Below are positions 1,227-60,129 of a stretch of 64,000 nt of DNA, piece after piece. Source of the stretch: Patescibacteria group bacterium (GTDB lineage Bacteria; Patescibacteriota; Patescibacteriia; 2-02-FULL-49-11); contig JBAZQN010000006.1 of the NCBI GenBank assembly GCA_041645165.1, forward strand, positions 4,933 to 68,932, in the 5' to 3' direction. The notes beneath the pieces are model-generated. The model worked only from the letters and a program-made list of their open reading frames with translations. It did not search any database and was not told the origin of the DNA. The position numbers were made by a program, and so were the translations under genes. How positions within the stretch are numbered: position 1 is the stretch's first letter; every line of letters begins with the position of its first letter.

Positions 1227-1240
1227 AAAAGTTGTGTAAT

Positions 1241-1684
1241 CTATTTACTTTTCTGTTTATCTTTAAATAATAACAATTTCACTATTAAAAAATACAGTGA
1301 CATATAAATGGGTAGCGTTAACAAATAATAGTAATTATATTCCCTGATACCAAAGCCATGCCACTTAGATGCCAACCAAGGAAATGGAAAACCATATTTT
1401 ACTATTTCTTCTTGTGCGTCTGCGACACTGGCATGTTCTATGCTCCATAAATCATCCGATTCAGAACTATTTTTATCATAATAATCACGGTTACTGTAAT
1501 CCTTAAAATAAATAGTAACAAAAAATAATTTTATAGTTACATCTCTTAAACATCGGGGATTAGAGTCGACATTGACATAATTATGACCATAAACATTAAA
1601 ACAATGGTCATAAAAAAATATTATTTTATAGCTTAAATTTATGCAGATTAGAATAATAAATAAAATAATTTTCTTTTTAGACAT
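1241..1684 (-). CDS. hypothetical small secreted/membrane-anchored protein (paralog 2)
   Basis: 147-aa ORF with N-terminus MSKKKIILFIILICINLSY. Tandem with previous ORF and equally AT-rich. Confidence 0.45.
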   Translation of the reverse strand: MSKKKIILFIILICINLSYKIIFFYDHCFNVYGHNYVNVDSNPRCLRDVTIKLFFVTIYFKDYSNRDYYDKNSSESDDLWSIEHASVADAQEEIVKYGFPFPWLASKWHGFGIREYNYYYLLTLPIYMSLYFLIVKLLLFKDKQKSK

Positions 1685-1900
1685 AAAATTGTTCTCTATT
1701 ATGATGATAAAATTAGTATCTAGAACTATTTGAAGTGGTAATAAGTCGGCTCAATTCCCTCCATTTGAGCCGATAACTAAATCCCTAATCGGCTCATTCG
1801 CGCCGTGTTTGAGCCGAAAGATCCCGCGGTTTGAGCTGTTTCTTTATTAGTATCTGCTGACTAGGCTCACCCTAACCCATTATCATTTCTTCTGCGCCTT

Positions 1901-1946
1901 TTGAGGATGAAATATGCGCTTCATCCACTCAATCATGCCTAGAAGG
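1901..1946. repeat. direct repeat copy 1: diverged duplicate of the P-type ATPase 3' end (translates to ...HPQKAQKK*)
   Basis: 37/37 nt identical (ggatgaaatatgcgcttcatccactcaatcatgccta) to 2468-2504, which encodes the real C-terminus ...MIEWMKRIFHPHKKGKD*. Confidence 0.7.
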
Positions 1947-1978
1947 TCAGAATTACTCATGTTTTTAATAAACATGCA

Positions 1979-2410
1979 TTAACTAAGTTTTTTAATAAAC
2001 CTGATTGCTTTATTAATTTTATAGATTTCTTTAACCACGCAATAGGGTAAAATCACTAAAATGATAAATAGCATTATGAACAAAATCAAAATAACTGGGA
2101 ATAAATCTTTATCAATGAATTGAAAAAAATCTTTACTAAAAACATCTTTACTAAAAAAGGATATAATCATTATCATTATAAAAAGATATACAGATACTAA
2201 AAATAGTCTACCAAACTTTTGTCGTGTTAATTCAACAATATTTTTATCTAATATTATCAAATTGTATAAAAAGTTATTTTGTTTCGCTAAACATCCTTTA
2301 TGATAAAATAATACAGTATGCAATAAGGAAGCCGCACCTAAATAATCCCGCTCAGCAATAATCAAATCGTCCCTGGAATATATTTCTTTTTTGCATTGAT
2401 AACATTTCAT
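1979..2410 (-). CDS. hypothetical zinc-ribbon (CxxC...HxxC) membrane protein
   Basis: 143-aa ORF with N-terminal C-x2-C ... HKGC, followed by two hydrophobic segments. Sits between the two direct-repeat copies of the ATPase 3' end. Confidence 0.35.
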   Translation of the reverse strand: MKCYQCKKEIYSRDDLIIAERDYLGAASLLHTVLFYHKGCLAKQNNFLYNLIILDKNIVELTRQKFGRLFLVSVYLFIMIMIISFFSKDVFSKDFFQFIDKDLFPVILILFIMLFIILVILPYCVVKEIYKINKAIRFIKKLS

Positions 2411-2445
2411 ATTTTATTTCATTAAAGTATCAAAAATCTTTAAAT

Positions 2446-14091: not shown

Positions 14092-14219
14092 ATTTTTTAT
14101 TGAGTACTTATTTAACCAAATCCAAACCTATTTTAAACGGTACTGATAACGTGCCTTGCTCCCCGATAGCCCAAATGCTCGAACGATGCGGACAAAGAAA
14201 GGCGCTCTGAAGTTGAATG

Positions 14220-14984
14220 TTAAAAATTTCCAAAAATCATTATACACCGTGAGCTTTTATTTTGGTCGAACTTTTTATGAACGTTAAAATCACCCAAGAG
14301 TTTCTTTAATTTCCATCTCTTCCCTAATAAACTCTTAACTTCCTTCACCGTGAGATATTGCTGCGTCTCAGTGTCTTGGATTACACGCCTCTCTCCAGTC
14401 TTTTTATTAGTAATTGTGTAAACGTAACTTGATTCACGAATCCTATTTTGATTAATAATCCAATCTCTGGTCACCGTTAACTGGTATTGCTTATTATTTA
14501 CTGGAGCATAGGTCTTGTGAAATTCTCTCATCGTTATATAACGATAGAAATTCGCTTCTTCTAATATGATTACTTGTTTTATGTGGCTTTTTAACCAATG
14601 AAAAAAATGTTTGCGCCCCTTTGCGTTCAGAATGTAAGGAAATGTGGACCACATACAAATCGCTGCATCATAATTTTTTTGAAGCGCTATGGTCTCAAAA
14701 GTTCCCTGTGCGGTCTTTAATTGGATATACCCTTTTTTCGCTTGAAGCAGCGCATTCTTCGACTGGTCAAATATAGTTACATCGTACCCTTGAGAAGCAA
14801 GGATCTTAGAATGCATGCCCACCCCGCCACCGAGATCGATAATGGTCTTAACCTTTCCCCCAAAAGTTCCCACAACTCCTAAAATAAATTCCGTCTCGTC
14901 TTTCTCTGCTCCTTTCCGTTCCTCTAAACTTTCACGAAAAAGTGGGTAAAGGTTGGTAAGTCTTTCGTACATCAACGTTTTCAT
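14220..14984 (-). CDS. class I SAM-dependent methyltransferase
   Basis: Motif I IIDLGGGVGMHS and acidic loop DVTIFDQS. Located in the AT-rich island. Confidence 0.7.
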   Translation of the reverse strand: MKTLMYERLTNLYPLFRESLEERKGAEKDETEFILGVVGTFGGKVKTIIDLGGGVGMHSKILASQGYDVTIFDQSKNALLQAKKGYIQLKTAQGTFETIALQKNYDAAICMWSTFPYILNAKGRKHFFHWLKSHIKQVIILEEANFYRYITMREFHKTYAPVNNKQYQLTVTRDWIINQNRIRESSYVYTITNKKTGERRVIQDTETQQYLTVKEVKSLLGKRWKLKKLLGDFNVHKKFDQNKSSRCIMIFGNF

Positions 14985-15769
14985 ACTGACCTTTTTTTAC
15001 TTAAAACTTGGACTATCTCTTTATGATTCAATGAATTGGCCGCGACATAACTGGGCTGATATAGATCAACTCTTTGACCCTTAAAATTGGTCACTTTCCC
15101 TCCCGCCTCTCGGACAATAAGGCTTCCGGCAGCCCAATCCCATGGTTTATCTACACGATCAATACATCCATCAATTCTTCCCAACGCGAGATAAGCGAGT
15201 ACCGTACATGCTGAATTAAAAATTCTCACCTCTCTCGTTTTGCCAACAAACCGATAGAGGATGCCGACATCTGCCCTATTAAAGTATGTTTCAGACGCAA
15301 GTATCGAATCTTTCAAGAGCCTGCGAGAAACTGAAAGTCTCCTTTTGCCCGCATAGGCACCGTGACCTTTGACCGCACTTAAGAGGAGATTTTCGCTAGG
15401 GAGATAGAGTACGCCGAGTATAATCTCGCCATTCATCTCTAACCCTATGGAAACGGAAAAAAGAGGGATTCCTCGTGCATAATTCGGGGTACCGTCAAGT
15501 GGGTCAATAATCCATTTATAGCCTCTTGTTAGAGAATATGCGGATGAAGACTCCTCCGCGAGGACAGTAAAATCTGGGGTCTCCTTTTTTAGATGCTCAA
15601 GGATAATTTTTTCACTTTTTATGTCTGCTTCCGTCACCCACGTTTCATCGTTTTTTCTATGAACCTGGATGGCGTCGTTTCGAAATTGTTTCATGAGGTA
15701 GTGACCAGCTTTCTCTGCTGCTGTCGAGGCTATCTTTAAACAAAAACCTAAATTCCCTTTACTATTCAT
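14981..15769 (-). CDS. inositol monophosphatase-family phosphatase (SuhB/HisN-like)
   Basis: IMPase motifs WIIDPLDGTPNY and …WDWAAG…. Confidence 0.8.
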   Translation of the reverse strand: MNSKGNLGFCLKIASTAAEKAGHYLMKQFRNDAIQVHRKNDETWVTEADIKSEKIILEHLKKETPDFTVLAEESSSAYSLTRGYKWIIDPLDGTPNYARGIPLFSVSIGLEMNGEIILGVLYLPSENLLLSAVKGHGAYAGKRRLSVSRRLLKDSILASETYFNRADVGILYRFVGKTREVRIFNSACTVLAYLALGRIDGCIDRVDKPWDWAAGSLIVREAGGKVTNFKGQRVDLYQPSYVAANSLNHKEIVQVLSKKRSV

Positions 15770-15771
15770 AT

Positions 15772-16908
15772 CTATCCCAAAATACCTTTAATGGCATGTA
15801 ACACCCTGTTATTCGATTCCTGATCCAAAACAGTGATGCGCACAAAATGATTATGGAATTGCTTACTCATTGAATCGCAGTTCCTGATATACACACCCTT
15901 ATCTTTAAGCTTCTCGATTAACAGAGAGGCGGATATCTTTTTAAGCTGGCAAAGAATAAAATTGGTGACTGATGGAAAAGTCACTAATCCCGGGAGCTTG
16001 GCTAACTCTCTAAACAATAATTTTTCAAGTTTATGTGTTTTTTCTATTTTTTTGGCATAATATTTCCAATTTGAAATAGCAGCTATTGCCGCCATCTGAC
16101 CTGGCAGGCTAACCGACCACGGTGGAATACGCAAAATAAGGCTTTTTGTGATACTTGCATTTGCGATAAGATACCCCACACGCAATCCCGAGAGAGCATA
16201 AATCTTTGACATAGATTTCAATATGCACAGATTAGGATGCTGATCCACTAAAGTCTCACATGATTCATGATGTCCTACATATTCGATATATGTTTCATCA
16301 ACTATAATCATAGTATTTTTGGGAACAGCGGCAATAAACTCTTGCACTTGTGCACGAGTCATATAGGTACCTGCCGGGCTATTAGGATTTACTATAACAA
16401 CTACCTTCGGTTTGTGCTGAATAACATCTTTGATTAGCTGGCTAAGGGAAACTTGAAAATTATTTTCTGGTTTTAAAGCATGAGAAACGATTTTACAACC
16501 TACTACCTTCTCCATTACGTGCAGGTACTCTCCATACATGGGATCAATAATCATGGCGAGATCCTTTTGCGTAAAAAGAATTTCTAAGAGCAAAAAAATT
16601 AATTGGGACGAACCTGTTCCGCATGAGATTAACCTTTCGGGGACCTCTCTAGTTTGTGATATGGTTTTTATGAGAGATTGCGGTCGCGCGGGCGGACTTG
16701 TATGAATAATGTGCTCTAGATGCTTTCTAAGCACCTGACTAACTGCGGGGGCAGGCGGATACCATGCATCAAGAACATCAGCGGGTATTATAGTATGACC
16801 AAGCTCAGAAATTCGACTAAAATCATACTTAAACTTTTCCCAAAAGCTTCCGCCATGAAATGCCGCGACATCAATTTGCCCTTTTCTCATTTTGCCGGTA
16901 TTACTCAT
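15772..16908 (-). CDS. class I/II PLP-dependent aminotransferase (HisC/CobD-like)
   Basis: 378 aa with PLP-lysine context SMSKIYALSGLRVGY and N-terminal fold-type I. Confidence 0.75.
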   Translation of the reverse strand: MSNTGKMRKGQIDVAAFHGGSFWEKFKYDFSRISELGHTIIPADVLDAWYPPAPAVSQVLRKHLEHIIHTSPPARPQSLIKTISQTREVPERLISCGTGSSQLIFLLLEILFTQKDLAMIIDPMYGEYLHVMEKVVGCKIVSHALKPENNFQVSLSQLIKDVIQHKPKVVVIVNPNSPAGTYMTRAQVQEFIAAVPKNTMIIVDETYIEYVGHHESCETLVDQHPNLCILKSMSKIYALSGLRVGYLIANASITKSLILRIPPWSVSLPGQMAAIAAISNWKYYAKKIEKTHKLEKLLFRELAKLPGLVTFPSVTNFILCQLKKISASLLIEKLKDKGVYIRNCDSMSKQFHNHFVRITVLDQESNNRVLHAIKGILG

Positions 16909-16949
16909 AAACTCTCAGCATAACAGCAGACAAAACGTCTTATGATTTA

Positions 16950-17000
16950 GTAGCGCACCATCTGCGCGAGATTTTCAAGAGTTTCTTTCGATGCTTGCAT
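16950..17000. repeat. direct repeat: displaced duplicate of tkt 5' end (encodes MQASKETLENLAQMVRY)
   Basis: tagcgcaccatctgcgcgagattttcaagagtttctttcgatgcttgcat. Bounds a ~2.86-kb AT-rich island together with 14041-14091. Confidence 0.75.
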
Positions 17001-17029
17001 ACAATATTATGGTGCAGTATTCTAAAGAT

Positions 17030-17110
17030 AGTCCGAACCGCTTTCGCCGCCTGCGGCGGCGAGGAAGTCCCCCCGCGAAAATTCGGAATGGCGGCGGAGC
17101 CGCACCGCTG
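17030..17110. repeat. GC-rich element related to family F
   Basis: Shares tttcgccgc, gcgagga, cccgcgaa and ggcggc with 5296-5402. Confidence 0.35.
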
Positions 17111-17153
17111 ACAATTTCAAGTTTTTCTTTGGCGGTATTTAATTATAACACAT

Positions 17154-17858
17154 TCAGAATTTTTTGAATTTCAGGCCCATAAAAAATTCGTAGAAAGGTC
17201 CTGCTACCATTCCAACACCAAATGCCCATAATAATTCTTCAATCGGAATACCTGAAATAAAAATATGGCTTAGGTTTGGAAGTAGCCACCATTTGTGTAT
17301 AACCCCCGGAAACAATGCAAGAAAAATTAGATAACCGAATAAAGTTAAGAGGCCCACCAACAGGCCACTTGCAAGCGCGTCAAAAAATAGGTCTCGTCTA
17401 AAATAAATCATAAAAGCACTTAAAATTCCAAAACTGACTAGGGCCGCATAAATCGAGTTAATCCCGAAATATACTGGAAGACCAAAAACTAAAAAGAAAA
17501 GTGCAAAGAAAGGAATGAGAAACCAAGTCCAATGATGTCTTCTATCTCTTCTTTTGCAAAAATGCTTACCAAAAACTTCCTCGTAAATCACATTAGCTAT
17601 GCCACCGAGAAAAAAACCATACAGAAAATCTTCAATACCTCCTAGTCGCCAATTTTTTAAAAAAGAAGAGTGTATATATTCTGGTCTCCAGTAATCTGCC
17701 AAAAACCATGGAGCCCATAAAATAGCAAGAATCCCGACACAGAAACTAGCAACTAAAATTTCTTTCCTACAATCCTTACGATGAATGAAAAAATATAACC
17801 AAAGTGGTAATGCTACAAGGTTTCCCAAAAGATATGCGTATTGAAAGTCATTAAACAT
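17154..17858 (-). CDS. hypothetical polytopic membrane protein
   Basis: 234 aa with ~7 hydrophobic helices. AT-rich. Confidence 0.45.
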   Translation of the reverse strand: MFNDFQYAYLLGNLVALPLWLYFFIHRKDCRKEILVASFCVGILAILWAPWFLADYWRPEYIHSSFLKNWRLGGIEDFLYGFFLGGIANVIYEEVFGKHFCKRRDRRHHWTWFLIPFFALFFLVFGLPVYFGINSIYAALVSFGILSAFMIYFRRDLFFDALASGLLVGLLTLFGYLIFLALFPGVIHKWWLLPNLSHIFISGIPIEELLWAFGVGMVAGPFYEFFMGLKFKKF

Positions 17859-17983
17859 GCATGATTAAAAAATTTTCTTCCCCCAAAATGCGAAATCGTG
17901 AATTCGTTTTTACCCCCAAAATTGAATACAAATTAGTCGCCGAGCGAAGCGAGGCGAGCCTTTCAAACTTGCAATTTCCTACG

Positions 17984-18059
17984 TGGTGCGCCCAGCAGGG
18001 ATCGAACCTGCGACCGTTGGCTTAAAAGGCCACTGCTCTACCAACTGAGCTATGGGCGC
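17984..18059 (-). tRNA. tRNA-Lys (anticodon UUU)
   Basis: GCGCCCATAGCTCAGTTGGTAGAGCAGTGGCCTTTTAAGCCAACGGTCGCAGGTTCGATCCCTGCTGGGCGCACCA. Cloverleaf with anticodon loop CUUUUAA; CCA is encoded. Confidence 0.85.
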
Positions 18060-49303: not shown

Positions 49304-49549
49304 TACAAAAGGCCATCATTTACATGATGGCCTTAAAATTTTTTAAACCACAAACCCGCCTCATATCTGGCGGGTTCCTGATTATTACACTGAAACCGAT
49401 CTACAGTTTTCAGATTTATCTCTCTCGCATATCTTAGACTTAGCTTGAACTTTTTTCGAGCGAGAGTTCAAAGGAATTTTAAAGGAAAAAACTGAACTGA
49501 AATTTCCCAAAACCGCTTTCGGGCGGCGGCGAGGCCTCAAAATCGCATA

Positions 49550-52285
49550 TTATTGTTTAAGAATATCTCCCAGTTGCCTTATTGCCTCGCCGTAGCGCGC
49601 CCAATCACCATCCCTTTGCGCTCGAACGGCTTCCTCATACGCTCCTAAGGCTCTTCGTATACGCTCCGGAATATCTTGAGGTGGTATTCCACCTGAGGCG
49701 GACGGTTTTGTTGTCGCGGACCCTTGCGGCTTTACTCCCGCTCCACTGCCAAAAATTTTCGATAACCCCTCCTCCAGCGTCTCTTCCATGGCAATTTTAT
49801 TTTCATACGCCACAACCACCCTTTTTAACTCGGGGATTTTTCCGGCTTCGGCCTTGAGATAGAGCGGGCGCACATACAAGAGCGATTCCTCAATCGGAAT
49901 AACTAAAAGTGGGCCTTGGATTACTTGCGACCCGCCTTGACTCCAAAGCGAGATCTGCTGACTAATCACCGGGTCCTGGTTGATGCGGCCGATGATCTGC
50001 TTTGGTCCGAACACAAGCTTGTCTTTAGGAAAACGATAGACCAACAACTTGCCGTAGTTTTCTCCATCGTTACGGGCAACCATCCAGGCGGACAGGTTGT
50101 CTTTTGCGCGGGGAGTAAAAGGCAGCATCAAAATATATTCCTCTTTTTTCTCTCCCGGCAACTTCATAATAATATGCCGTGGTTGCATCGGCGGAATCCC
50201 GCTCCCACGGGACGCCCCCTCTCCTTCTGACGCAATGGCCGGAATTTCCCACTGGTCTTCTTTGTTGTAAAAAATCTGTGGATCATCCATGTGGTAGACC
50301 GAATACGCGGCAGTCTGCAGGGTAAAGATATCTTCGGGATAGCGCAAATGAGAAACAAGGTTCTCTGGAATTTCTGACATCGGTCGGAATGTTCCGGGGA
50401 AAATCGTGGCGTATGTTTTTAAAATCGGGTCCTCTGTGTCCGCTTGATAGAAAACGACACTGCCATTATACGCATCAACCACCACTTTTACCGAGTTTCT
50501 CACATAATTTACACTCTTGCCATTCAACAACAACGGTTGGGAATAGGGATAACGGTCGCTCGTGGTATAGGCATCGGCGATCCAATACACCTTGCCGTCG
50601 GCAATAACGATATAAGGGTCTCGGTCAAAGGTCAAAAACGGCGCGATTTTGGCGATTCTTTCGGCAATAGTGCGGTAATACAGAATACGACTCTCACTGG
50701 TTATGTCGTTAGACAAAAGCAGTTTAAGCGATTGGAATTTCACTGCGTAAAAGACACGCTTGATGAAAGAGTTCATCTCCACCCCACCCGTGCCTTCATA
50801 TGTTGCGTAGACATTTTCTTCGCCTTTTGGATAGTTGAACTCGAGAGATTTGGTTTTTGCGATGACGTAGTCGTTTGAAAGCTCGCCGAAGTAGATCTCA
50901 GGACGCGAGATTTTCAGTTCATCCACATCAGATTTGGGCGGCAAATCCTTAACGAATAAAACCGGCAATCCTTCCTGGGTGACTTGATTCATCGGCCCGG
51001 CCGCTATGCCATAGCCGTGCGTAAACGTCAGCCGTTCATTGATCCAGTTCCTGTTCGGCAGGCTGGCCGAAGACAACTCCCGCGGAGAGAGCATAATCTG
51101 GCGAATTTCTCCATCTATGATATAGCGATCATTATCAACTTCGGCAAACTCGTAATAAGTTCTGATTTCCTGTATCTGGGAAAAAGTTGACAAAAGGGGC
51201 TTCCTGTCCCAAAGCCGCATGTTTTTAACCGTGAGATTGTTGGCCGAGATATCAGTGCTGGTTATGGGCTTATCTCCCGAGATTTCTCGTTCCTCGATTT
51301 TATCAAGAGCAAACGCCTGACGGGTAGCGGCGATATTATACTTAATAAACGGCGTTTCTTTTACCAGCTCATTGGGGGCAACCACCAATTTTTGAACAAG
51401 GGAAGGGATTACTGCTCCCGCGAATCCCACGACAACATAAAGAGAAACTGCTCCGACAAGCAGTGACAACTTTCCCTTCCATACCCAAAAGACGACCGAA
51501 ACTGCCGCAAGTACAGCCGTAACCATTGAGATCCAAAGCATGAGTATTCTCACGGTTGCGTCTGTGTACGTCGCGCCAAATACTAAACCATCCTGACTCG
51601 CGAGCAGTGTAAAGCGAGAAAGGTAGACCCCGGCGGCAATGGTTGAGAGAATTATTGCGAGCAAGATGCCAAGATGAATTCTCGCCGCGCGTTCAATTCG
51701 CATTTGTTTAAGTAATTGTAGACTTGCGACATAAAGGCTGCCTCGCAAAAAATATATGATCGCACAGCCGATCAGCGTCAAGATAACGAGTGTTTTCGCG
51801 AGACCAAGACCCGCTTGTAAAACAGGGAGAGAGAAGACATAAAATCCGATGTCTTTATTAAAGATAGGGTCTGTCGCGCCAAAAGCCGCGCCTGAAATAA
51901 ATTTTAATACCTCCTGCCAATTGGCCGCCGCCACAAGTCCGAAAAAGAGCGCGATTGCCACGCTCAACACAACGGCCAATTTTTTAACAATGCGATTGTT
52001 CAAATCCACCGGCCGGCCGATTAACGCCTCCGGCAAAATTGCCGTCCAAGAGATTTTTGAGCGGATTGCTAAAGAGAAGTTGATAAACAAAAAAACGGCG
52101 GCAAAAATTCCCGCTACCGAAAACAACGCTATTTTAGCGATCAGAGACTTAATAAAGATTTGAGTGTAGCCAACCTCGGAGAACCACCACCAATCAGTAA
52201 CAAAGGCGACAATGCTTGAAAAAAGGATAAAGACAACAAAAAGCCCAATAAAGGAGATTCGTGTGAGGTACTTTGGAATAGTCAT
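49550..52285 (-). CDS. UPF0182-family large membrane protein
   Basis: 911 aa. N-terminal ~280 aa has 7 TM helices, followed by a large extracytoplasmic domain. Typical UPF0182 architecture. Confidence 0.7.
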   Translation of the reverse strand: MTIPKYLTRISFIGLFVVFILFSSIVAFVTDWWWFSEVGYTQIFIKSLIAKIALFSVAGIFAAVFLFINFSLAIRSKISWTAILPEALIGRPVDLNNRIVKKLAVVLSVAIALFFGLVAAANWQEVLKFISGAAFGATDPIFNKDIGFYVFSLPVLQAGLGLAKTLVILTLIGCAIIYFLRGSLYVASLQLLKQMRIERAARIHLGILLAIILSTIAAGVYLSRFTLLASQDGLVFGATYTDATVRILMLWISMVTAVLAAVSVVFWVWKGKLSLLVGAVSLYVVVGFAGAVIPSLVQKLVVAPNELVKETPFIKYNIAATRQAFALDKIEEREISGDKPITSTDISANNLTVKNMRLWDRKPLLSTFSQIQEIRTYYEFAEVDNDRYIIDGEIRQIMLSPRELSSASLPNRNWINERLTFTHGYGIAAGPMNQVTQEGLPVLFVKDLPPKSDVDELKISRPEIYFGELSNDYVIAKTKSLEFNYPKGEENVYATYEGTGGVEMNSFIKRVFYAVKFQSLKLLLSNDITSESRILYYRTIAERIAKIAPFLTFDRDPYIVIADGKVYWIADAYTTSDRYPYSQPLLLNGKSVNYVRNSVKVVVDAYNGSVVFYQADTEDPILKTYATIFPGTFRPMSEIPENLVSHLRYPEDIFTLQTAAYSVYHMDDPQIFYNKEDQWEIPAIASEGEGASRGSGIPPMQPRHIIMKLPGEKKEEYILMLPFTPRAKDNLSAWMVARNDGENYGKLLVYRFPKDKLVFGPKQIIGRINQDPVISQQISLWSQGGSQVIQGPLLVIPIEESLLYVRPLYLKAEAGKIPELKRVVVAYENKIAMEETLEEGLSKIFGSGAGVKPQGSATTKPSASGGIPPQDIPERIRRALGAYEEAVRAQRDGDWARYGEAIRQLGDILKQ

Positions 52286-52414
52286 AATGATTATATTATA
52301 GAAAATTTTTCCTCAGTTGTTAATATCCACCCGCAAGCGGCGCGACAAAGGCGATAATTAGCAGAACAATCACGGTAATGAAAATAATTCTTTTGACCTT
52401 GTCAGACATAAAAT

Positions 52415-53455
52415 TTATTGGCTTTCGCGCTCTTTATGAATCATAATATAGATTTCGAGGAAGGTAAAGAGCAGGTTTAAGACGAGAGGCCCTAATAAGA
52501 ATCCGAGAGGTCCAAAAAAGCCGATGCCGCCCAAGATAGAAAGTAGAATCAGAAATGGATGGAGCTGTGTTCCTCGTCCAACGAGCTTCGGTCCCAAAAA
52601 GTTGTCAACGAGTCCCACGGCTGTCATTCCCCAAAGCAGAAGGCCGACCGCGAAAAACATTTCTCCGCTGAAGTATAGGTAGAGAATCGCCGGAAGAAGC
52701 ACTAAAGCCGTCCCAATACCGGGGATTAACGCGGTGATTGCCGCAACACTACCCCACAGCGTCGCATTGGGAACTCCGAAGATGGCGAATCCGACCGCGG
52801 TTAGTATGCCTTGAATGAACGCCACCATAAGACTCCCTTTGATGACTGAATTAATTGCCAGCGCAAGCTTATTGAAAATTGTTTCATCGTGAATATCTTG
52901 CAGGGGGCTTAAAGCGACGACGGCCTCTTTGAGTTTGCGACCATCCTTAAACAGATAATACAGAGCGACGAGGAATATAAAGATTCCAACCATTGCTTTT
53001 GCAACATTCGCAAAAAGAGGTCCGAGGTGCTGGAGTAACCAGATTAATCCCTGTTTTAAGTACGGGTTAATATCAATGGAGAATTCTATTGGCACAGGAG
53101 AAAATCTCGTGAGGTTCTGCATGGCATCATTCACACCGCGAGAGAGATCCGTTATGTCGTCGCTTTGTGTAAGAAAAGAGTGAAGCTGTGTTGCTTCCTG
53201 AAAAATCTGTATGCCTAAAAATGCGAGAGGTACGATAACAACGATAAGAACAGAGATGGTGGCGAGAAGCGCCGCCAGACCCCTTCGCTCGCGCGTAATG
53301 GTGAGCGTCTTTTTGTGGAATGGCGCAAAGACGGTTGCAAAAACCATGGCCAAGATAAGCGCATAAAGAAAAGGCTTAAAAATGAAAAGGGCAAGGACAA
53401 AAATTCCTGCGAGTAGAATGAGTAAAAAATAAAATTCTGATTTTTGGTGTTTCAT
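52415..53455 (-). CDS. AI-2E family transporter (PerM/UPF0118-like permease)
   Basis: 8 TM. Annotated start at MKHQKSEFYFLLILLAGIF… The tracked ORF has an extra 21-aa lead-in. Confidence 0.7.
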   Translation of the reverse strand: MKHQKSEFYFLLILLAGIFVLALFIFKPFLYALILAMVFATVFAPFHKKTLTITRERRGLAALLATISVLIVVIVPLAFLGIQIFQEATQLHSFLTQSDDITDLSRGVNDAMQNLTRFSPVPIEFSIDINPYLKQGLIWLLQHLGPLFANVAKAMVGIFIFLVALYYLFKDGRKLKEAVVALSPLQDIHDETIFNKLALAINSVIKGSLMVAFIQGILTAVGFAIFGVPNATLWGSVAAITALIPGIGTALVLLPAILYLYFSGEMFFAVGLLLWGMTAVGLVDNFLGPKLVGRGTQLHPFLILLSILGGIGFFGPLGFLLGPLVLNLLFTFLEIYIMIHKERESQ

Positions 53456-53607
53456 GTTATTTTTTCTTCCAAAATTTAAATTTATTAAAAAGTAAAATTC
53501 GCCAGCCCAATAATTCAAGACCGATAATTGCTAGCCATGAACCGGGAGTGAGCGGAGTAAAAAAAGCGGCAAGTCCTATTAGCACCAAAACAACGCCGAT
53601 GGGTTTC

Positions 53608-56325
53608 TTAATTTTTTGCATTTTCATTGCTTGTTTCTCGTCTTCGTAACAGTCCTTTCGTTATTTCCAATATCGGCACCACCGTTGCCGCCGCGCCCGC
53701 AACTATTGCCCAATCAGCGTACGATAAAGCCACGGTCTTAAACGGCACTTGAAGAAAAGGTACATAGATGACGAGCGCCAATAGAAGTAGCTCCCACGCA
53801 ATAGCGAGGTTCAGCCACCGGTTGGCAAATGGTCGGCGCAATACCGAATAGTGATCCGAACGGAAACTGTATGCCTTGAAAAATTGAATGAGCACCAGCG
53901 AGACAAATACCATCGCCATACTCGCGACCAAATCCCGACCAGACTGCAAAGCCCAGACAAACAGACCGACATTGACGAGTGTAGACCATACCCCGCCCGT
54001 GACCATCAGCGTAACAACGGAGCGGCTGAAAATTCCGCCAGTCAATTTGCGCGGGGAACGTCGCATGATATTAGCCTCGGGCGGATCCACGGCCAGCGCC
54101 AAAGCAGGCAGGCCATCCGTGGCAAGATTCACGTATAAAATCTGCACTGCTGAGAGTGGTAAGGGCAATCCCATAAGCGACGTCACCACCATCAGTCCGA
54201 TTTCGCCGATGTTTGATGAAATCAAATACATGAGGTATTTTTTTATATTGCTAAAGATAATCCGCCCCTCCTCCACCGCGGCAACAATGGAGGCAAAGTT
54301 ATCATCGGTCAATATCATGGCCGCCGCTTCTCTGGAGACATCAGTACCAGTAATACCCATGGCAATGCCAATATTGGCTTTCTTGATGGCCGGAGCGTCG
54401 TTGACGCCGTCGCCCGTCATAGCCACAATATGGCCGCGACGTTGCAGGGCCTCTACCACTCGCAGTTTGTGTTCGGGCGATACCCGAGCGCAGACGGCGA
54501 TGTGCTCAATACTTTGTTCTAGCTCGTTATCGCTCATCGCGGAGAGATCGCTGCCAGTAATCACTCGGCCACCGAGGGGCAAAAGGGTCAGTTCCCGCGC
54601 AATTGCCTTAGCCGTCACCGGGTGGTCACCGGTGATCATCATGAGTTTAATTCCGGCCTGTCGACAAAGCTCAATGGCCTGTTTCGCCTCCAGCCGGGGC
54701 GGATCAATCATGCCAAAGAGGCCCAGGAAAATCATATCTCGCTGCGCCAGCTCAATATCAGTGGCCGGAACATACGCCACTCCAATGACTCGAAGAGCTT
54801 CCTCGCCAAAGGTCTGCGTAGCGGCAAGGATAGCAGTGCGCACTTCCTTGGTGAGCGGTTGCACTTCTCCGCTTGTTTGGTAACGAGTGCAGGAGGCGAG
54901 AATAATTTCAGCCGCTCCCTTCCCGTACGCCACCGTGCCAAGGGGCGATTGGTGTAGTGTGGTCATTCGTTTACTTTCGGAACTAAAGGGGATTTCGGCC
55001 ACGCGCCGAAACTGCTCATCCATGAATTCTTTTTGCAGTCCCGCTTTTTCTGCCGCCACGACCAACGCTCCCTCGGTGGGGTCGCCTTTCAAATCCCAAA
55101 CGCCATCGGTTTTCGCAAGGCGAGCGTCCGAAGAGAGCGCGGCTGCTTGGAGTAAAAGCCGCAGGTTGTCCGTCAACGGATAGGGCTGACCTTGCCATAG
55201 AAATTCTCCTCTTGGCTCATATCCGCTGCCGCTCACCTCCAGCACAATTTCGCCATTTAAAAAAATTTTTCGCACGGTCATTTCGTCTTTGGTAAGCGTA
55301 CCTGTTTTATCCGAGCAGATAATGCTTGTGCATCCCAGGGTTTCTACCGCCGGCAAATGCCGCACCAGGGCGTTCCGTTTGACCATTCGTTGCACGCCAA
55401 TGGCGAGCGAGATCGTCACCACCGCGGGAAGCGCCTCAGGCACTACCGCGACGGCGAGTGCAATACCAAAGACTATCATCTCAAGTAGCGGTTGCCCTCG
55501 GAATAACCCGAGCAGTACGATACCCGCCACCACCGCAAAAGCGGCTTTGGTCAGGGTTTTCGCCACGCGGTCCAAATTTTTTGCTAAAGGAGTTTCTTCC
55601 TGCTCCACACTTTGGAGCATCCCCGCAATACGGCCAAATTCTGTCTGCATACCAGTGGCAGTAACTATGGCTCGTCCACGACCGTAGATAGCACTGGTAC
55701 CTGCAAAAACCATATTGCGACGATCCCCGAGTGGAGATCCTTCCTCACAGGTAAGCTCACTATGTTTTTCTACAGGTACAGATTCACCGGTTAATGCCGC
55801 TTCTTCCGCCTTTAGATTCACTGCTTCAATTAAACGAGCGTCAGCCGGGAAGCGATCGCCGGTCGCAAGCACAATAATGTCGCCTGGCACGAGCTCTTGG
55901 GCAGGCACTTCTCGCTCCAATCCATCGCGGAAAACCAGAGCTATTGGTGCGGCGAGCCTGCGCAGCGCTTCAAGCGCCCGCCCGGCGCGCCACTCTTGAA
56001 CAAAACCCAGGACTACGGCAAAGAGTATAATCACCCCAATAGCGATCGCTTCCACCACATGGCCCAAAATACCAGAGAGCGCCGTGGCGACAAGTAGAAT
56101 AAGAATTAAGGAATTCTTGAACTGATGAAGAAAGAGTGTAAATGGCGAAATTTGGGCGGCGGCAATAAGCTGGTTGGGACCATACTGTTGAAGACGAGTT
56201 TGTGCTTCAACATCAGATAATCCAGTAGTTCCGTCGGTCTTGAGTTCAGCGATAGCAGTGGCAGCGGTAAGGGCATGCCAGGGACGGCGGTTTGCTTCAT
56301 TATTGCCTAAATTCTTATGATGCAT
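53608..56325 (-). CDS. cation-transporting P-type ATPase (second P2-type paralog)
   Basis: ICSDKTGTLT, MITGDHPVTAKAIA, MTGDGVNDAPAIKKANIGIAMG. 905 aa. Confidence 0.9.
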   Translation of the reverse strand: MHHKNLGNNEANRRPWHALTAATAIAELKTDGTTGLSDVEAQTRLQQYGPNQLIAAAQISPFTLFLHQFKNSLILILLVATALSGILGHVVEAIAIGVIILFAVVLGFVQEWRAGRALEALRRLAAPIALVFRDGLEREVPAQELVPGDIIVLATGDRFPADARLIEAVNLKAEEAALTGESVPVEKHSELTCEEGSPLGDRRNMVFAGTSAIYGRGRAIVTATGMQTEFGRIAGMLQSVEQEETPLAKNLDRVAKTLTKAAFAVVAGIVLLGLFRGQPLLEMIVFGIALAVAVVPEALPAVVTISLAIGVQRMVKRNALVRHLPAVETLGCTSIICSDKTGTLTKDEMTVRKIFLNGEIVLEVSGSGYEPRGEFLWQGQPYPLTDNLRLLLQAAALSSDARLAKTDGVWDLKGDPTEGALVVAAEKAGLQKEFMDEQFRRVAEIPFSSESKRMTTLHQSPLGTVAYGKGAAEIILASCTRYQTSGEVQPLTKEVRTAILAATQTFGEEALRVIGVAYVPATDIELAQRDMIFLGLFGMIDPPRLEAKQAIELCRQAGIKLMMITGDHPVTAKAIARELTLLPLGGRVITGSDLSAMSDNELEQSIEHIAVCARVSPEHKLRVVEALQRRGHIVAMTGDGVNDAPAIKKANIGIAMGITGTDVSREAAAMILTDDNFASIVAAVEEGRIIFSNIKKYLMYLISSNIGEIGLMVVTSLMGLPLPLSAVQILYVNLATDGLPALALAVDPPEANIMRRSPRKLTGGIFSRSVVTLMVTGGVWSTLVNVGLFVWALQSGRDLVASMAMVFVSLVLIQFFKAYSFRSDHYSVLRRPFANRWLNLAIAWELLLLALVIYVPFLQVPFKTVALSYADWAIVAGAAATVVPILEITKGLLRRRETSNENAKN

Positions 56326-56327
56326 AG

Positions 56328-56546
56328 TTAGTTTTTGATTAAATCATCAACGCCAACATCCAACGCTTTGGCGATTCTCGTTAGTGTTTCAATAGTTGGG
56401 TTTGGGTTTGCTCCCGATTCCACTGTAACCACGGTATTAAGCGACAAATCCGCCAGCTTGGACAGGCGATCTTGGGAAATACCTTTGTCCTGCCGGATTT
56501 TCTTCAAGTTTTTGGCTATTTTTGAACCTTGATTATTATTTGACAT
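56328..56546 (-). CDS. XRE-family helix-turn-helix transcriptional regulator
   Basis: 72 aa. …LKKIRQDKGISQDRLSKLADLSLNTVVTVESG…. Confidence 0.75.
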   Translation of the reverse strand: MSNNNQGSKIAKNLKKIRQDKGISQDRLSKLADLSLNTVVTVESGANPNPTIETLTRIAKALDVGVDDLIKN

Positions 56547-57026
56547 AGGTCTTTGGAAGATATACCATTATATTGTATAGGTTAAAAAGTATCCTTTTAC
56601 TTTCATCAATTACAATGATAACAAATTTCAAAAGACTTGTCCAAACAAAAGGGAGTTCCTACTTGTCGCCCGCGCACGGGAAGGGTGGGGCAAGGGCGAC
56701 TATTCTTTTTCTTTTGGACCCGCCGCCCGAAAAATCCGCTGGGGGTTTCCAGCAGGTGGGCAAAAAGGAAGGGGGTTGGGGGGAAGGAATTTTTGCCCAT
56801 CTGCTCTCCGCGCCGAAGGCGCGGCTGAGGTGGGAGCGGCTCCGCTCTCTTGCTCCTTCAAGAGAAGCAAAGCAAAACATTTTTCAATTCCTTTTAGAAG
56901 AAAAAGGGTCGCGCACCAAAATTGAAAAAAGAGAAAAATGTTTTGCTTCGCGCCGCCGTCAGGCGGGCGGAGCCGCAGGACGGGTCAGTTTCGTTCAAAG
57001 TAGGTTCGCACTGCGTTCAGTAATTG

Positions 57027-57175
57027 CGACCAAGTTAGACATTGACAGTTTTCGGAAGAAGGTACGCGCTCGCTTCGCTCGCGCGCTGGGGGGATTTTAT
57101 TCTGATTTTCCGCCACAATCCGCCATTCGCCCGACCAATCCCAGCCGACTTTTTTGGAGAGCAGGCGGCGGTTCG
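57027..57175. repeat. perfect 149-bp inverted repeat, left copy (IR-L), immediately upstream of the serine recombinase gene
   Basis: Reverse complement of 57027-57175 is identical to 58661-58809. Confidence 0.85.
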
Positions 57176-57291
57176 GGTGCGCGAAGCGCACAACAAATGA
57201 AATTTGTATCCAATTTTTTCCTTTCCGCCAAAGGCGGAATACGAAGCCAGTTTTTTAATCCCGCGCTTTACGGCCAAAGGCGACTAACAAT

Positions 57292-58887
57292 ATGAACACC
57301 AAATACTTTTTATACGCTCGCAAATCAACCGAAGACGAAGAACGGCAAGTGATGAGTATTGAAGCGCAGCTTACGGAGTTGGCTGAATTTGCCAAGCGAG
57401 AAAATATTGAAATTGCCGAAACATTTATTGAATCAAAAAGCGCAAAGAAGCCAGGGCGAGAAGTGTTTAACGAGATGATGAGCAGAGTTCAGGAAAGTAA
57501 AACTACGGTGGGACTTCTCGCGTGGCACCCGGATCGTCTCGCCCGCAACAGCGTTGATGGCGGTTTGATAATTTACTCCATAGACACCGCCAAAATCGCT
57601 TCTTTGCGCTTTCCCACATTTTGGTTTGAGCCAACTCCGCAAGGGCTTTTTATGCTCCAAGTCGCCTTTGGCCAATCAAAATATTATTCCGACAATTTGT
57701 CGGAAAATGTAAAGCGCGGGATTCGCCAAAAACTCAGGCGGGGGGAGTGGCCCGGCCTTGCGCCGTTTGGGTATGTGAACAATCCGAAAACACGAACGAT
57801 TGAGCCAGACCCAACAAAAGCGAGAGTTATCAAAAAAGCGTTTGAAGAATACGCGCAAGGCCGTCATACACTTTTGTCTTTAGGTGAACGCCTGAGTTTT
57901 TGGGGCGTGGTGAGCGGAACCGGAAAACCGCTTTGCAAAGCAACGCTCCAACGAATGCTTACCAATAAAGCGCATCTCGGTTTAATTGTCCATAACGACG
58001 AAACTTACGAGGGCGGTTTTCCAGCAATTGTTTCCAGAGCGACTTTTGAGAAAGTGCAGGAAGTGTTAAAGAGCCGAGCCAAGCCGCGTCATTCTAAAAA
58101 GCGGCATAACTTCCCATTTACCGGACTGCTTACTTGCGGCGAGTGCGGCGCGGCTATTACGGCACAATACGCGCATGGACACGGTGGAACTTACAAATAC
58201 TATCGTTGCACCAAACGGCTTGGCTCGTGTTCGCAAAGTTATTTGCGCGAGGACTTACTCACCGAACAACTGAAAATAGAAATCTCAAAAGTCGCTCTCT
58301 GCGAAGACTCGAAAGAAAAGATGCTGGCGCAAGTGGAAGTGTGGGAAAAAGAAAATATCCAGTCTTCGCAATCTTTCGCCCAAAATTTGGAAAAGGAAAT
58401 CAAGGAAACCGAACAAAAACTTGATAGATTGGTAAACGCCTTTTTGGACGGAAGCATAGAAAAAGAAACCTACCTTACCAAAAAGGATGAACTCATCACA
58501 ACCAAAACAGACCTCCAGCAAAGGAAGTCTGATTTTGGGCGAAAGGGAAACAATTGGATCGAACCTTTGCGCGAATGGATTTTAGCCGCTCACCACGCGG
58601 AAAAACTGGCTTCGTCAAACGAATTTGATGAAATCAAATCGTTTGTTGAAAAAATTGGAACGAACCGCCGCCTGCTCTCCAAAAAAGTCGGCTGGGATTG
58701 GTCGGGCGAATGGCGGATTGTGGCGGAAAATCAGAATAAAATCCCCCCAGCGCGCGAGCGAAGCGAGCGCGTACCTTCTTCCGAAAACTGTCAATGTCTA
58801 ACTTGGTCGGGGCGGGGAGAATCGAACTCCCGCTACAAGCACCCCATGCTCGCGTACTACCATTATACTACGCCCCGTAAATTGTAG
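57292..58887 (+). CDS. large serine recombinase (resolvase/invertase N-domain + recombinase domain + zinc ribbon)
   Basis: YARKSTEDEERQ…SIEAQ (catalytic Ser), …HPDRLARN…, Zn ribbon CGECGAAI…YYRC. The last ~28 codons read through tRNA-Pro (antisense), so the true stop is probably earlier or overlapping. Confidence 0.85.
   Translation: MNTKYFLYARKSTEDEERQVMSIEAQLTELAEFAKRENIEIAETFIESKSAKKPGREVFNEMMSRVQESKTTVGLLAWHPDRLARNSVDGGLIIYSIDTAKIASLRFPTFWFEPTPQGLFMLQVAFGQSKYYSDNLSENVKRGIRQKLRRGEWPGLAPFGYVNNPKTRTIEPDPTKARVIKKAFEEYAQGRHTLLSLGERLSFWGVVSGTGKPLCKATLQRMLTNKAHLGLIVHNDETYEGGFPAIVSRATFEKVQEVLKSRAKPRHSKKRHNFPFTGLLTCGECGAAITAQYAHGHGGTYKYYRCTKRLGSCSQSYLREDLLTEQLKIEISKVALCEDSKEKMLAQVEVWEKENIQSSQSFAQNLEKEIKETEQKLDRLVNAFLDGSIEKETYLTKKDELITTKTDLQQRKSDFGRKGNNWIEPLREWILAAHHAEKLASSNEFDEIKSFVEKIGTNRRLLSKKVGWDWSGEWRIVAENQNKIPPARERSERVPSSENCQCLTWSGRGESNSRYKHPMLAYYHYTTPRKL
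58661..58809. repeat. perfect 149-bp inverted repeat, right copy (IR-R). Encodes the C-terminal ~48 aa of the recombinase and includes the last 6 nt of tRNA-Pro.
   Basis: cgaaccgccgcctgctctccaaaaaagtcggctgggattggtcgggcgaatggcgg…ctgtcaatgtctaacttggtcg. Confidence 0.85.
58804..58877 (-). tRNA. tRNA-Pro (anticodon GGG)
   Basis: CGGGGCGTAGTATAATGGTAGTACGCGAGCATGGGGTGCTTGTAGCGGGAGTTCGATTCTCCCCGCCCCGACCA. Confidence 0.8.
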
Positions 58888-58987
58888 CCCCGAAATCTAC
58901 TTCGGGGCCATGCATGCCTAACTACCGCCTTGATATCACACTGTGATATCAAGACCTACACCCCGTCAAATTGTAGTCTCGAAAACT
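58866..58987. repeat. att-like region: ~30-bp direct repeats (58868-58896 and 58946-58975) flanking a perfect 25-bp palindrome (CTTGATATCACACTGTGATATCAAG)
   Basis: ctacgccccgtaaattgtagccccgaaa vs ctacaccccgtcaaattgtagtctcgaaa. DR1 overlaps the 5' end of tRNA-Pro. Confidence 0.6.
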
Positions 58988-59673
58988 AAACTACTCAATG
59001 ACTTTATGACTTATTGACTTATTGACTAACACAAATGGCTCCAAAGGCTATTAGTAGGCAAGTCAGTCCCTCGCAAGTCAATCGGGCCACGTCTTCCATC
59101 AGCTGGCCTCGCACGAGGCTCGGTCAATCCGATACAAGATTCTCTCCCAAAGGAGAAAGGCCGCTGGTTGCTCTCAACCCGATACCGCAGTATCAAGGAA
59201 ATCAAGCTGACCGACGAAAATTACTTGACGAACCACTTAATCCTACTTATGAGCGCTAAAAGGAGCCACCTCTATTATACCACACCGTCAAGGCTCTTCA
59301 AGGTAAACAATTCCCTCAAACTCCAGCTTCGTAAGGTAGAGAAAATGTCCCCTCCTCTACGAAGGACTGCACTGCGAGTCAGAAGCGGTGCAGAGGGAGG
59401 TCTCCTGGGGATAACTGGACTGGACACCTTACTCACTATCCCCTACCATAGAAATACTATATGCAAATAACACCCAACCAAACCATGAAGATGAACAAGA
59501 TGAAGATGTCCTACCCTCAAGGGACTGGTTGGTGTTATGCATAAGGTTTAAATAAAAATTAGGAATACACCTCCAGCCCCAGAGCTGGTTTTTTTGTTTT
59601 TACATAATCACAGAAGCCAGTTTAGGCCATTGATACGCCAAAAACACAAAACGTTCATTGACAAGGAGAAGGA

Positions 59674-60129
59674 ATGAAAAAAGTTATTACATGGGTGATA
59701 GGATTTATCCTTTCACCTCTAAGCTTTTGGAACGATTTATTTATAAACGTTCCAATAAGCTGGTTCGTTGCTTGGCCGGCGGCACTCATATATCGGCCTG
59801 CATTCCCATTCGTATTTTCGGTTGCATATATCGCGACCAACGTGCTGGGAATGCGCATGATGGACACGGCGGTCCATCAAAAAAACAATGGCGTTGTTAC
59901 ATGGGCCAACGCCATCGGCTGTGTGGTGTTACTCGCAGCCGCCAGCTTGGGCTGGATCCCGCTTCCGTTACTCTTTGTCACTGCTTGTGTGGTGGCAAAT
60001 ATGATCGGCGCGATCATTTACCAGATCGCGGGAAATAAAAAGAGGGTCGAACTGTGCATGACCCTTGTTTACACCGCTCTTATAGTAGGAGCGGTATTCA
60101 TGGAATGGATTCCAATACCCACTCCTTAA
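59674..60129 (+). CDS. hypothetical small polytopic membrane protein
   Basis: 151 aa with 4 hydrophobic helices. Confidence 0.5.
   Translation: MKKVITWVIGFILSPLSFWNDLFINVPISWFVAWPAALIYRPAFPFVFSVAYIATNVLGMRMMDTAVHQKNNGVVTWANAIGCVVLLAAASLGWIPLPLLFVTACVVANMIGAIIYQIAGNKKRVELCMTLVYTALIVGAVFMEWIPIPTP

Follow-up and report, generated by a model that had tools for sequence, protein, structure and literature searches.

We analysed a 64-kb stretch (hereafter the window) of a metagenome-assembled genome of a Patescibacteria group bacterium, in which a direct repeat and a perfect palindrome lie beside a gene for tRNA-Pro and had been interpreted, from the letters alone, as the footprint of site-specific integration or excision at that tRNA. 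The explanation that we favour, and consider probable as a whole, is that the segment holds a dead native tRNA-Pro gene directly upstream of a working replacement copy, and that an island bearing a large serine recombinase (LSR) is inserted at the 3' end of the latter. The flagged segment is, therefore, best read as a scar and not as a recombination site, the true junctions lying at 58807–58809 and 49425–49427. Feature coordinates are collected in Table 1.

The repeat and the palindrome are both real. The two copies of the repeat are identical at 28 of 33 positions, with one 1-nt indel, and contain nt 1–10 of tRNA-Pro plus ~22 nt of upstream sequence; they thus occupy the 5' (promoter) side of the gene, which is on the minus strand. 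Start to start, they are 88–89 nt apart (89 nt instead of the 80 given in the sequence-only reading), with 56 nt in between. Their local alignment score of 39 compares with 13.3 ± 2.2 (maximum 24) in 2000 dinucleotide-preserving shuffles, none of which reached 39, and was matched at just five of 3000 random window positions. The two upstream stretches agree at 19 of 22 positions. The palindrome, CTTGATATCACA-C-TGTGATATCAAG, has perfect 12-nt arms, for which our own arithmetic gives an expectation of ~0.004 per 64 kb. The region is 100% identical in two independent assemblies of the same genome (L001 and L002), which rules out an assembly error, and both features are confirmed to be far beyond chance.

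Four related contigs of Patescibacteria (L083, L085, L087 and L088) were located through the DUF7980 gene and a conserved noncoding block that lies upstream of the tRNA. In L087 and L088, this block (95–96% identical to its counterpart in the window) is directly followed by tRNA-Pro(GGG), with the junction ...GTTAGTCATTTTA/CGGGGTGTAG..., and L083 has the same order with ~20 nt between the two. Sequence alignments of these three contigs reveal neither the repeat, nor the palindrome, nor the island; they carry single-copy (empty) alleles, and the alternative junctions that the earlier reading had proposed to look for in relatives do, therefore, exist. In L085, which also has no island, a different extra segment of ~165 nt stands upstream of the tRNA and holds tRNA-Pro fragments, with more fragments downstream. 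Read along the minus strand, the extra DNA of the window comprises four tandem 8-nt units (these being common to the window and L085, and absent from L087, L088 and L083), TAGTTTTCGAGACTACAATTTGA, CGGGGTGTAG, a 29-nt block containing the palindrome, GCGGTAGTTAGGCATGCATGG, CCCCGAAGTAG, ATTTCGGGGCTACAATTTA and, finally, the working tRNA.

It is the segments of this extra DNA that identify the upstream copy. From CGGGGTGTAG it passes through the palindrome block, which stands where the D-loop TATACC would be, to GCGGTAGTTAGGCATGCATGG, a mutated anticodon loop and a terminal GTAG. Its first 10 nt are identical at 10 of 10 positions to the tRNA start in L085, L087 and L088, and GCGGTAGTTAGGCATGCATGG matches nt 16–36 of the relatives' tRNA at 19–20 of 21 positions (score 28–30, reached in none of 3000 shuffles), as against a score of only 16 with the window's own working tRNA. 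The identity of CGGGGTGTAG and the match of GCGGTAGTTAGGCATGCATGG to the relatives' gene imply that the copy is the native tRNA-Pro, cut after nt ~47. It has neither a T-arm nor a 3' acceptor strand, and neither ARAGORN nor Rfam recognises it as a tRNA, even at E ≤ 10, the sole model match being the working tRNA-Pro (58807–58877). Multi-segment tRNA homology at the orthologous position of the relatives' working gene, in a sequence that is unrecognisable as a functional tRNA, is what would be expected of a pseudo-tRNA; judged by these homologies, the upstream copy is a remnant of the native tRNA-Pro in which the palindrome replaces part of the D-loop.

The working tRNA, by comparison, is the outlier. 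Its sequence follows the pattern CGGGGCG...CGAGC...GGGAGTTCGATTCTCCC, and in a table of pairwise identities it is 80.6% identical to the tRNA-Pro(GGG) of L085, L087 and L088, a gene that is 100% identical among these three, though their DUF7980 genes are ~78% identical. Between the window and L087, identity is 95% for the noncoding block and 80% for DUF7980. The working tRNA differs at 14 positions, with paired (compensatory) changes in three stems, and it encodes the CCA that is absent from the tRNA of L085, L087 and L088, this CCA coming from the arm of the recombinase element. We infer that it is a foreign-looking replacement.

The recombinase gene converges on the tRNA: after ...CLTWS, its open reading frame (ORF) runs antisense through the entire tRNA-Pro gene. 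The deduced protein matches the Resolvase, recombinase and zinc-ribbon families of Pfam (E = 8.5e-22, 1.4e-12 and 1.6e-11, respectively), and Y8, R10 and S12 of its Y-x-R-x-S motif are invariant in 21 aligned homologues; on this basis, it is a large serine recombinase with predicted catalytic activity. Look-ups with both tail forms of the protein (see below) found no record of exactly this sequence. A 149-nt perfect inverted repeat brackets the gene: the right arm overlaps the last 6 nt of tRNA-Pro, whereas the left arm is an inverted copy of the LSR 3' end that continues, in frame, into a spare tail-coding piece. The latter is conserved from phylum to phylum, its variation being synonymous, and would complete the LSR if the gene body were inverted ('state B', as opposed to the 'state A' of the window). 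We had also considered whether the flank of the left arm might be a degenerate tRNA T-arm, and rejected this, as its variation is codon-wise and synonymous, and hence that of coding sequence. Other assemblies of the same genome break within the 149-nt repeat.

The far end of the island was defined in two ways. Synteny with L085 stops at 49421 and resumes at the tRNA, delimiting an insertion that all four relatives lack. Additionally, a position-specific scoring matrix (PSSM), built from 36 tail peptides and scanned over 127,912 six-frame positions, finds two sites in the window: S1, at 57026 on the minus strand (43 bits), and a second at 49428 on the plus strand (30.9 bits), the next-best hit scoring 7.7. 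Nucleotide alignment of the left island end with the flank of S1 is not significant. The core TCG is common to the four attachment (att) sites, namely attB (L087; CTTTC-TCG-GGGTGCC), attP (S1; CTTGG-TCG-CAATTAC), attL (CTCTC-TCG-CATATC) and attR (CTTGG-TCG-GGGCGG); moreover, in nine other elements, a short core is common to the three corresponding junctions (arm P to tail piece T, P to tRNA, and flank to T') and sits precisely at the point of joining. A short shared core, and an insertion absent from four relatives, are as expected of an LSR integrative element, and TCG cores at the synteny breaks are the signature of a serine-integrase crossover at tRNA nt 71–73. The island was, therefore, presumably inserted by the LSR at these nucleotides through the chemistry of that enzyme class, with the element's arm supplying the CCA that the native gene lacks. 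The predicted products of excision are a circle with the junction ...CTAACTTGG-TCG-CATATCTTAG... and a repaired site ...TCTCTC-TCG-GGGCGGGG.... A separate idea, in which the LSR element would carry the tRNA as cargo, was rejected, as closely related LSRs adjoin different tRNA-Pro sequences and even other types of tRNA; and the flank bearing the repeat and palindrome (58878–59670) has no counterpart in any of 80 homologous LSR loci.

How, then, might the scar have arisen? In the relatives, a promoter, a conserved noncoding RNA of ~235 nt, tRNA-Pro(GGG) and a terminator probably make up one transcription unit. In the window, the native tRNA-Pro has been cut after nt ~47, at a GTAG in the variable loop, its front part being retained (58897–58965) together with its own upstream stretch (that of repeat copy B); directly downstream there follow a second upstream stretch (copy A) and a complete, divergent tRNA-Pro(GGG). 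Accordingly, the direct repeat represents two homologous units, each of 22 promoter-proximal nt plus tRNA nt 1–10, one belonging to the dead native gene and the other to the working replacement. The latter presumably came in from a related donor, carried on the DNA that also bore the 9.4-kb island, one end of the donor DNA being joined by homology in the flank, and the other illegitimately at the GTAG microhomology. The hairpins in the dead copy (the 25-nt palindrome and CCCCGAA..TTCGGGG) most likely stem from templated (quasi-palindrome) mutation, and would form a highly structured leader if transcribed.

A simpler history, which we think unlikely but which is the best of the alternatives, would be a local tandem duplication of ~70 nt (22 nt upstream plus tRNA nt 1–47) by slippage or unequal exchange at (G)TAG microhomologies, followed by decay of the upstream copy, the island and the change in the tRNA being unrelated later events. 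It would account for the 19/22 identity of the upstream stretches, for the TAG with which both units, and also the sequence after the second unit, begin, and for the fact that L085, which lacks the island, shares the 8-nt repeats and has a degenerate 5' part of tRNA-Pro at the corresponding position. What speaks against it is the direction of the divergence: duplication in place should leave the working copy native-like, yet it is the dead copy that resembles the native gene and the working copy that has diverged, which favours replacement by a foreign allele. Even with a duplication, the 14 differences, some of which are compensatory, from a tRNA that three relatives share at 100% identity would call for a further conversion or replacement.

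Nonetheless, a number of observations weigh against the replacement history as proposed. No donor genome that has the replacement tRNA together with its upstream stretch was found, such that the outlier identity of the tRNA is what points to horizontal arrival; the LSRs closest to that of the window (92–95% identical) adjoin different tRNA-Pro sequences, from which it follows that the tRNA does not, as a rule, travel with the recombinase; and tandem duplication would give the same arrangement of upstream stretches. Part of the duplication history may even predate the island, as L085 has both the tRNA fragments and the 8-nt repeats. At the left end of the island, the attL half-site is detectable at the peptide level only, and it resembles that of another element subfamily (L060-like), which raises the possibility of a composite island. 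The perfect identity of the two inverted arms is subject to the caveat that repeat collapse can inflate such identity in short-read assemblies. Lastly, two perfect hairpins in a supposedly neutral remnant hint at selection, be it for a role in RNA processing, for the binding of a protein or the like.

This last point is the germ of a further alternative, which we regard as improbable: that the dead copy has been co-opted, the palindrome acting as an operator (e.g. for the XRE protein encoded in the island), or the hairpins as processing or insulation signals, with repeat copy B serving as the promoter of the tRNA. In a minus-strand transcript, the palindrome would give a 13-bp hairpin, and the second perfect hairpin spans the point at which the dead copy meets the stretch upstream of the working tRNA; the RNA fold of 58878–58975 has a predicted energy of −37.9 kcal/mol (z = −5.4), copy B contains the promoter match TTGAGT-17-TACAAT, and perfect symmetry is not expected of a drifting pseudogene. 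Set against this, the feature is conserved in no relative, and neither the XRE protein nor the LSR can be tied to the palindrome. There is no second copy in the window, nor any in 99 fetched loci (two other assemblies of the same genome excepted) or a viral collection; half-sites are not enriched in the window (five found versus 4.2 expected), with none close to the XRE or LSR genes; and the palindrome itself, which is near neither the XRE nor the LSR promoter, stands 2.4 kb away from the XRE gene and beyond the bounds of the island, and is absent from other XRE–LSR loci. An XRE/Cro-type operator would be expected in the promoter region of its regulator or target gene, usually in more than a single copy, and conserved along with that regulator, none of which applies here. 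The suggestion in the sequence-only reading that the palindrome is a binding site for the recombinase or regulator consequently finds no backing. Even a functional leader would fit the replacement history as a secondary role, without offering an alternative origin.

The proposed integration footprint fared better in part: tRNA-Pro is a genuine integration site, an island stands at it and relatives have alternative junctions, but the flagged repeats, which lie outside the island, are not the recombination sites. Were they att sites of the tyrosine-integrase type, they would be expected to flank an integrase-bearing element and to reproduce the 3' part of the tRNA; instead, they enclose 56 nt without an ORF and contain tRNA nt 1–10 plus 22 nt upstream, although the single-copy allele that such sites predict is indeed seen in L087, L088 and L083. 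Hence, we give only a slim chance to the 33-nt copies being attL and attR of a mostly deleted element that targeted the 5' part of tRNA-Pro, or to their flanking a miniature non-autonomous element with the palindrome as its core. The empty alleles without the repeat, the standing of the locus as a recombination hotspot (L085 has tRNA fragments on both sides) and a palindrome of the size of a protein-binding site would suit such an element. However, there is no gene between the copies, the intervening DNA is derived from the tRNA and so is not that of a foreign element, the copies are 85% and not near-100% identical, there is no tyrosine integrase nearby while the resident recombinase leaves a 3-nt core only, and the palindrome recurs neither in the window, nor in the 99 loci, nor in the viral collection. 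As for chance similarity or an assembly artefact, the shuffle statistics, the identical sequence in two other assemblies and the homology to the relatives' tRNA leave these with a negligible likelihood.

The recombinase element merits a description of its own. The LSR has more than 6000 relatives; the best 120 of these are 67–92% identical to it, and 80 homologous genomic loci from many phyla were compared. At ~60 of the 80, a near-perfect inverted repeat of 90–200 nt surrounds the LSR, with an arm ending 4–6 nt inside a convergent tRNA gene, usually Pro, though Gln, Trp, Lys, Arg, Ala, Val, Asp, Glu, His and Phe also occur; the terminal bases of the arm co-vary with the identity of the tRNA (e.g. 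CGACCA, CAGCCA, CTGCCA and CCACCA). Almost all of the 21 aligned homologues have a C-terminus made up of 'WSG' and antisense tRNA. Outside the left arm, the minus strand encodes, in frame, the sequence (Q/S)LLNE(A/V)RTxFE(Q/R)..., which is conserved across phyla with synonymous variation; ~20–25 of the 120 homologues end in this conserved tail, the others either running antisense into the tRNA (tail A) or being stopped by the end of a contig.

Three different tails occur on LSR proteins whose 506-residue bodies are identical, and tail-A and tail-B forms are found among near-identical LSRs, which implies that the gene body occurs in either orientation. The predicted order is seen in a state-B contig (L093), namely, orphan arm, LSR with tail, XRE, methyltransferase, helicase/nuclease and inverted tail region. 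In two 2-kb contigs, an arm with its tail stands at either side, as expected of an unintegrated element with two inverted attP sites, albeit that assembly repeat collapse could mimic this. Bounded by inverted repeats and found, in public data, in both orientations, the segment is as expected of an inverton; thus, the gene body can flip, and an ORF results in either orientation, the conserved tail being reached in the flipped one alone. The pair P0144 and P0145, considered as both orientations within one sample, was rejected on this count: they derive from different samples and are no evidence for flipping within a population.

Two copies of the element on a single 6.2-Mb Bacteroidales contig (L075 and L078) lie beside tRNA-Pro(TGG) and tRNA-Pro(GGG) and are 90% identical over ~3.1 kb; their inverted arms are 100% identical within each copy, versus 96.6% between copies, which hints at homogenization of the arms. 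The cargo seen across LSR elements includes transporters, a restriction-modification system and a HepT/MNT toxin–antitoxin pair. In L093 (2330–7983), XRE is accompanied by an N6/N4 methyltransferase and by a ResIII/helicase protein, a set similar to a restriction-modification system, whereas L094 (2412–6217) has XRE and a HepT/nucleotidyltransferase toxin–antitoxin pair. This suggests that the family moves defence and transport genes.

Whether all of this amounts to a widespread, recently mobile and apparently undescribed family of integrative elements (in Patescibacteria, Omnitrophota, Bacteroidales, Planctomycetes and others) is, in our estimation, an evenly balanced question. Such elements would carry attP in the last codons of their own recombinase gene, target the final 3 nt of tRNA genes and supply the CCA; the second, inverted copy of the 3' end would provide two inverted attP sites, between which the gene body would flip from a state that reads antisense into the tRNA to a tailed state that is co-directional with the tRNA promoter, XRE and cargo. 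The dead tRNA-Pro of the window would then be collateral damage.

The surroundings of the tRNA have features of their own. The conserved noncoding block is 82–96% identical across five genomes, as compared with 77–80% (at the nucleotide level) for the neighbouring protein gene. Its predicted fold is a long rod closed by GGCUCC/GGAGCC, with two compensatory pairs in four sequences; no Rfam family matched it, at either gathering or E ≤ 10 thresholds, in a scan of 58700–59750 whose only match was the tRNA. The promoter match upstream of the block probably also drives the tRNA in the relatives, given its conservation in their alignment. In L085 (374–650), the degenerate 5' tRNA-Pro part lies upstream of the tRNA, and downstream there are two copies of ATGTAGACCGG(G)TTTCC and a 3' tRNA part with a 30-nt interruption; the working tRNA is flanked by an 8-bp inverted repeat (CTTGGCCT/AGGCCAAG), and one of the tRNA-Pro fragments is also found in the window, at ~49395–49410. 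Within the island, overlapping divergent promoter matches occur between XRE and the recombinase side (56540–56643; TTGACA-17-TACCAT on the plus strand and TGGACA-17-TATCAT on the minus strand), and 56750–56980, a region rich in GC hairpins, is partly conserved in other copies of the element. Elsewhere in the window, the GC content is low (31–42%) at 1–3000 and 14000–18000; the latter stretch, which is beside tRNA-Lys (17984–18059), holds ordinary metabolic genes (aminotransferase, inositol monophosphatase, methyltransferase and a lycopene-cyclase domain protein) and no mobile genes.

Table 1. Positions (window numbering) of the features at and around the tRNA-Pro locus
Feature	Position	Strand	Details
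Integrated island, 9.4 kb	49428–58806		Absent from L083, L085, L087 and L088
attL	49425–49469	+	Core TCG, then decayed tail half-site HILDLA-stop-TFFEREF (in-frame TGA); at synteny break
UPF0182 cargo gene	49550–52285		Island
AI-2E transporter cargo gene	52415–53518		Island
P-type ATPase cargo gene	53608–56325		Island; followed by XRE and LSR
XRE-family helix-turn-helix gene	56328–56546	-	Adjoins LSR in at least 14 other loci as well
Spare tail-coding piece T	56985–57026	-	In frame with left arm: QLLNAVRTYFERN, then stop; PSSM 43 bits, top match of window
Left inverted-repeat arm	57027–57175	-	100% identical inverted copy of LSR 3' end
LSR ORF, state A	57292–58887	+	Resolvase, Recombinase and Zn_ribbon_recom domains
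Right inverted-repeat arm P	58661–58809	+	Last 49 LSR codons before junction; final TTGGTC-G is tRNA 3' end CGACCA
Working tRNA-Pro(GGG), encoded CCA	58804–58877	-	ARAGORN; Rfam 59.4 bits
attR core TCG	58807–58809		tRNA 3' end, end of right arm
Direct repeat copy A	58868–58899	-	22 nt upstream of working tRNA (with TACAAT) and tRNA nt 1–10, CGGGGCGTAG
Second perfect hairpin	58887–58908	-	CCCCGAA-GTAGAT-TTCGGGG
Pseudo-tRNA-Pro, native gene remnant, nt 1 to ~47	58897–58965	-	Alignments to relatives, shuffles
Perfect 12+1+12 palindrome	58929–58953		Inside pseudo-tRNA; singleton
Direct repeat copy B	58956–58988	-	23 nt upstream and nt 1–10, CGGGGTGTAG, of dead native tRNA-Pro
Sigma-70-like promoter match	58970–58998	-	TTGAGT-17-TACAAT; dead native copy; consensus match only
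Four tandem 8-nt units	58999–59030		TGACTTAT-like; between noncoding block and dead tRNA
Conserved noncoding block, candidate structured RNA	59033–59268	-	~235 nt; directly precedes tRNA-Pro in relatives, same orientation
Promoter match	59274–59301	-	TTGAAG-16-TATAAT, extended -10 TG; upstream of noncoding block; conserved in relatives' alignment

Pseudo-tRNAs at the borders of islands and prophages are a familiar phenomenon, and the scar shares their hallmarks: a partial tRNA beside an intact one at an island border, missing from empty alleles, at a locus that has been hit repeatedly. Classical border scars are, however, 3' fragments displaced by tyrosine integrases to the far end of the element, whereas that of the window comprises the 5' two-thirds of the gene, promoter region included, and lies immediately upstream of an intact gene that looks foreign. 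Tycheposons reportedly have partial tRNA repeats at their borders and use tRNA sites that are hit repeatedly; we know of none with nested inverted copies of the integrase 3' end. The scar is of a known kind, if an atypical one, a 5' fragment lying beside a replacement that looks foreign, and it is the integrase element that merits follow-up.

The LSR has the Resolvase, Recombinase and zinc-ribbon domains of the large serine integrases (Bxb1, phiC31, A118 and SPbeta SprA; TnpX/TndX; CcrAB), as well as their very short junction core. Its nearest solved relative is SprA/YokA (E = 5e-9) and it falls below all NCBIfam cut-offs; besides this distance from the characterized enzymes, it differs in targeting the last 3 nt of a tRNA, in having its att site within its own ORF and in being bracketed by an inverted copy of its 3' end. 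The integrases of SSV1-type viruses (Fuselloviridae), in which attP is inside the int gene, likewise have their ORF split by integration into a tRNA gene; however, that of SSV1 is a tyrosine recombinase whose gene is split into two large parts, whereas the LSR is a serine enzyme from which only the last ~13 codons are detached, and these can be restored from the spare inverted copy. Similarly, recombinase genes that occur in either orientation, enclosed by long inverted repeats holding the enzyme's own sites, are known from FLP/FRT of the yeast 2-micron plasmid and from the Hin/Gin/Pin invertible segments. FLP is, though, a tyrosine recombinase on a non-integrating plasmid, and Hin and Gin are small serine invertases with 26–34-bp sites that switch another gene, whereas, in the present case, the gene that is flipped encodes the integrase of an integrative element, and one of the repeat arms abuts a tRNA. 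As outlined for tycheposons and other tRNA-targeting integrative elements, cargo-bearing elements are inserted at tRNA genes (bioRxiv 10.1101/2020.12.28.424599), as in the window. A full-text literature search found no description of an att site in the ORF combined with an inverted 3' copy, which is absence of evidence only.

For the calling of att sites, the locus carries a caution: a significant repeat that contains part of a tRNA and lies beside a recombinase gene need not be the footprint of that recombinase. Comparison alone defines attL and attR, as well as attB (tRNA nt 71–73 and flanking DNA) and attP (within the ORF of the integrase), for a large family of serine integrases, the members of which are 60–95% identical across distant phyla, including the hard-to-manipulate Patescibacteria; enzymes of this sort are sought for genome engineering. 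Finally, the nested inverted copies suggest a previously unreported coupling, in which the integrity and orientation of the integrase are linked to the state of integration of the element.

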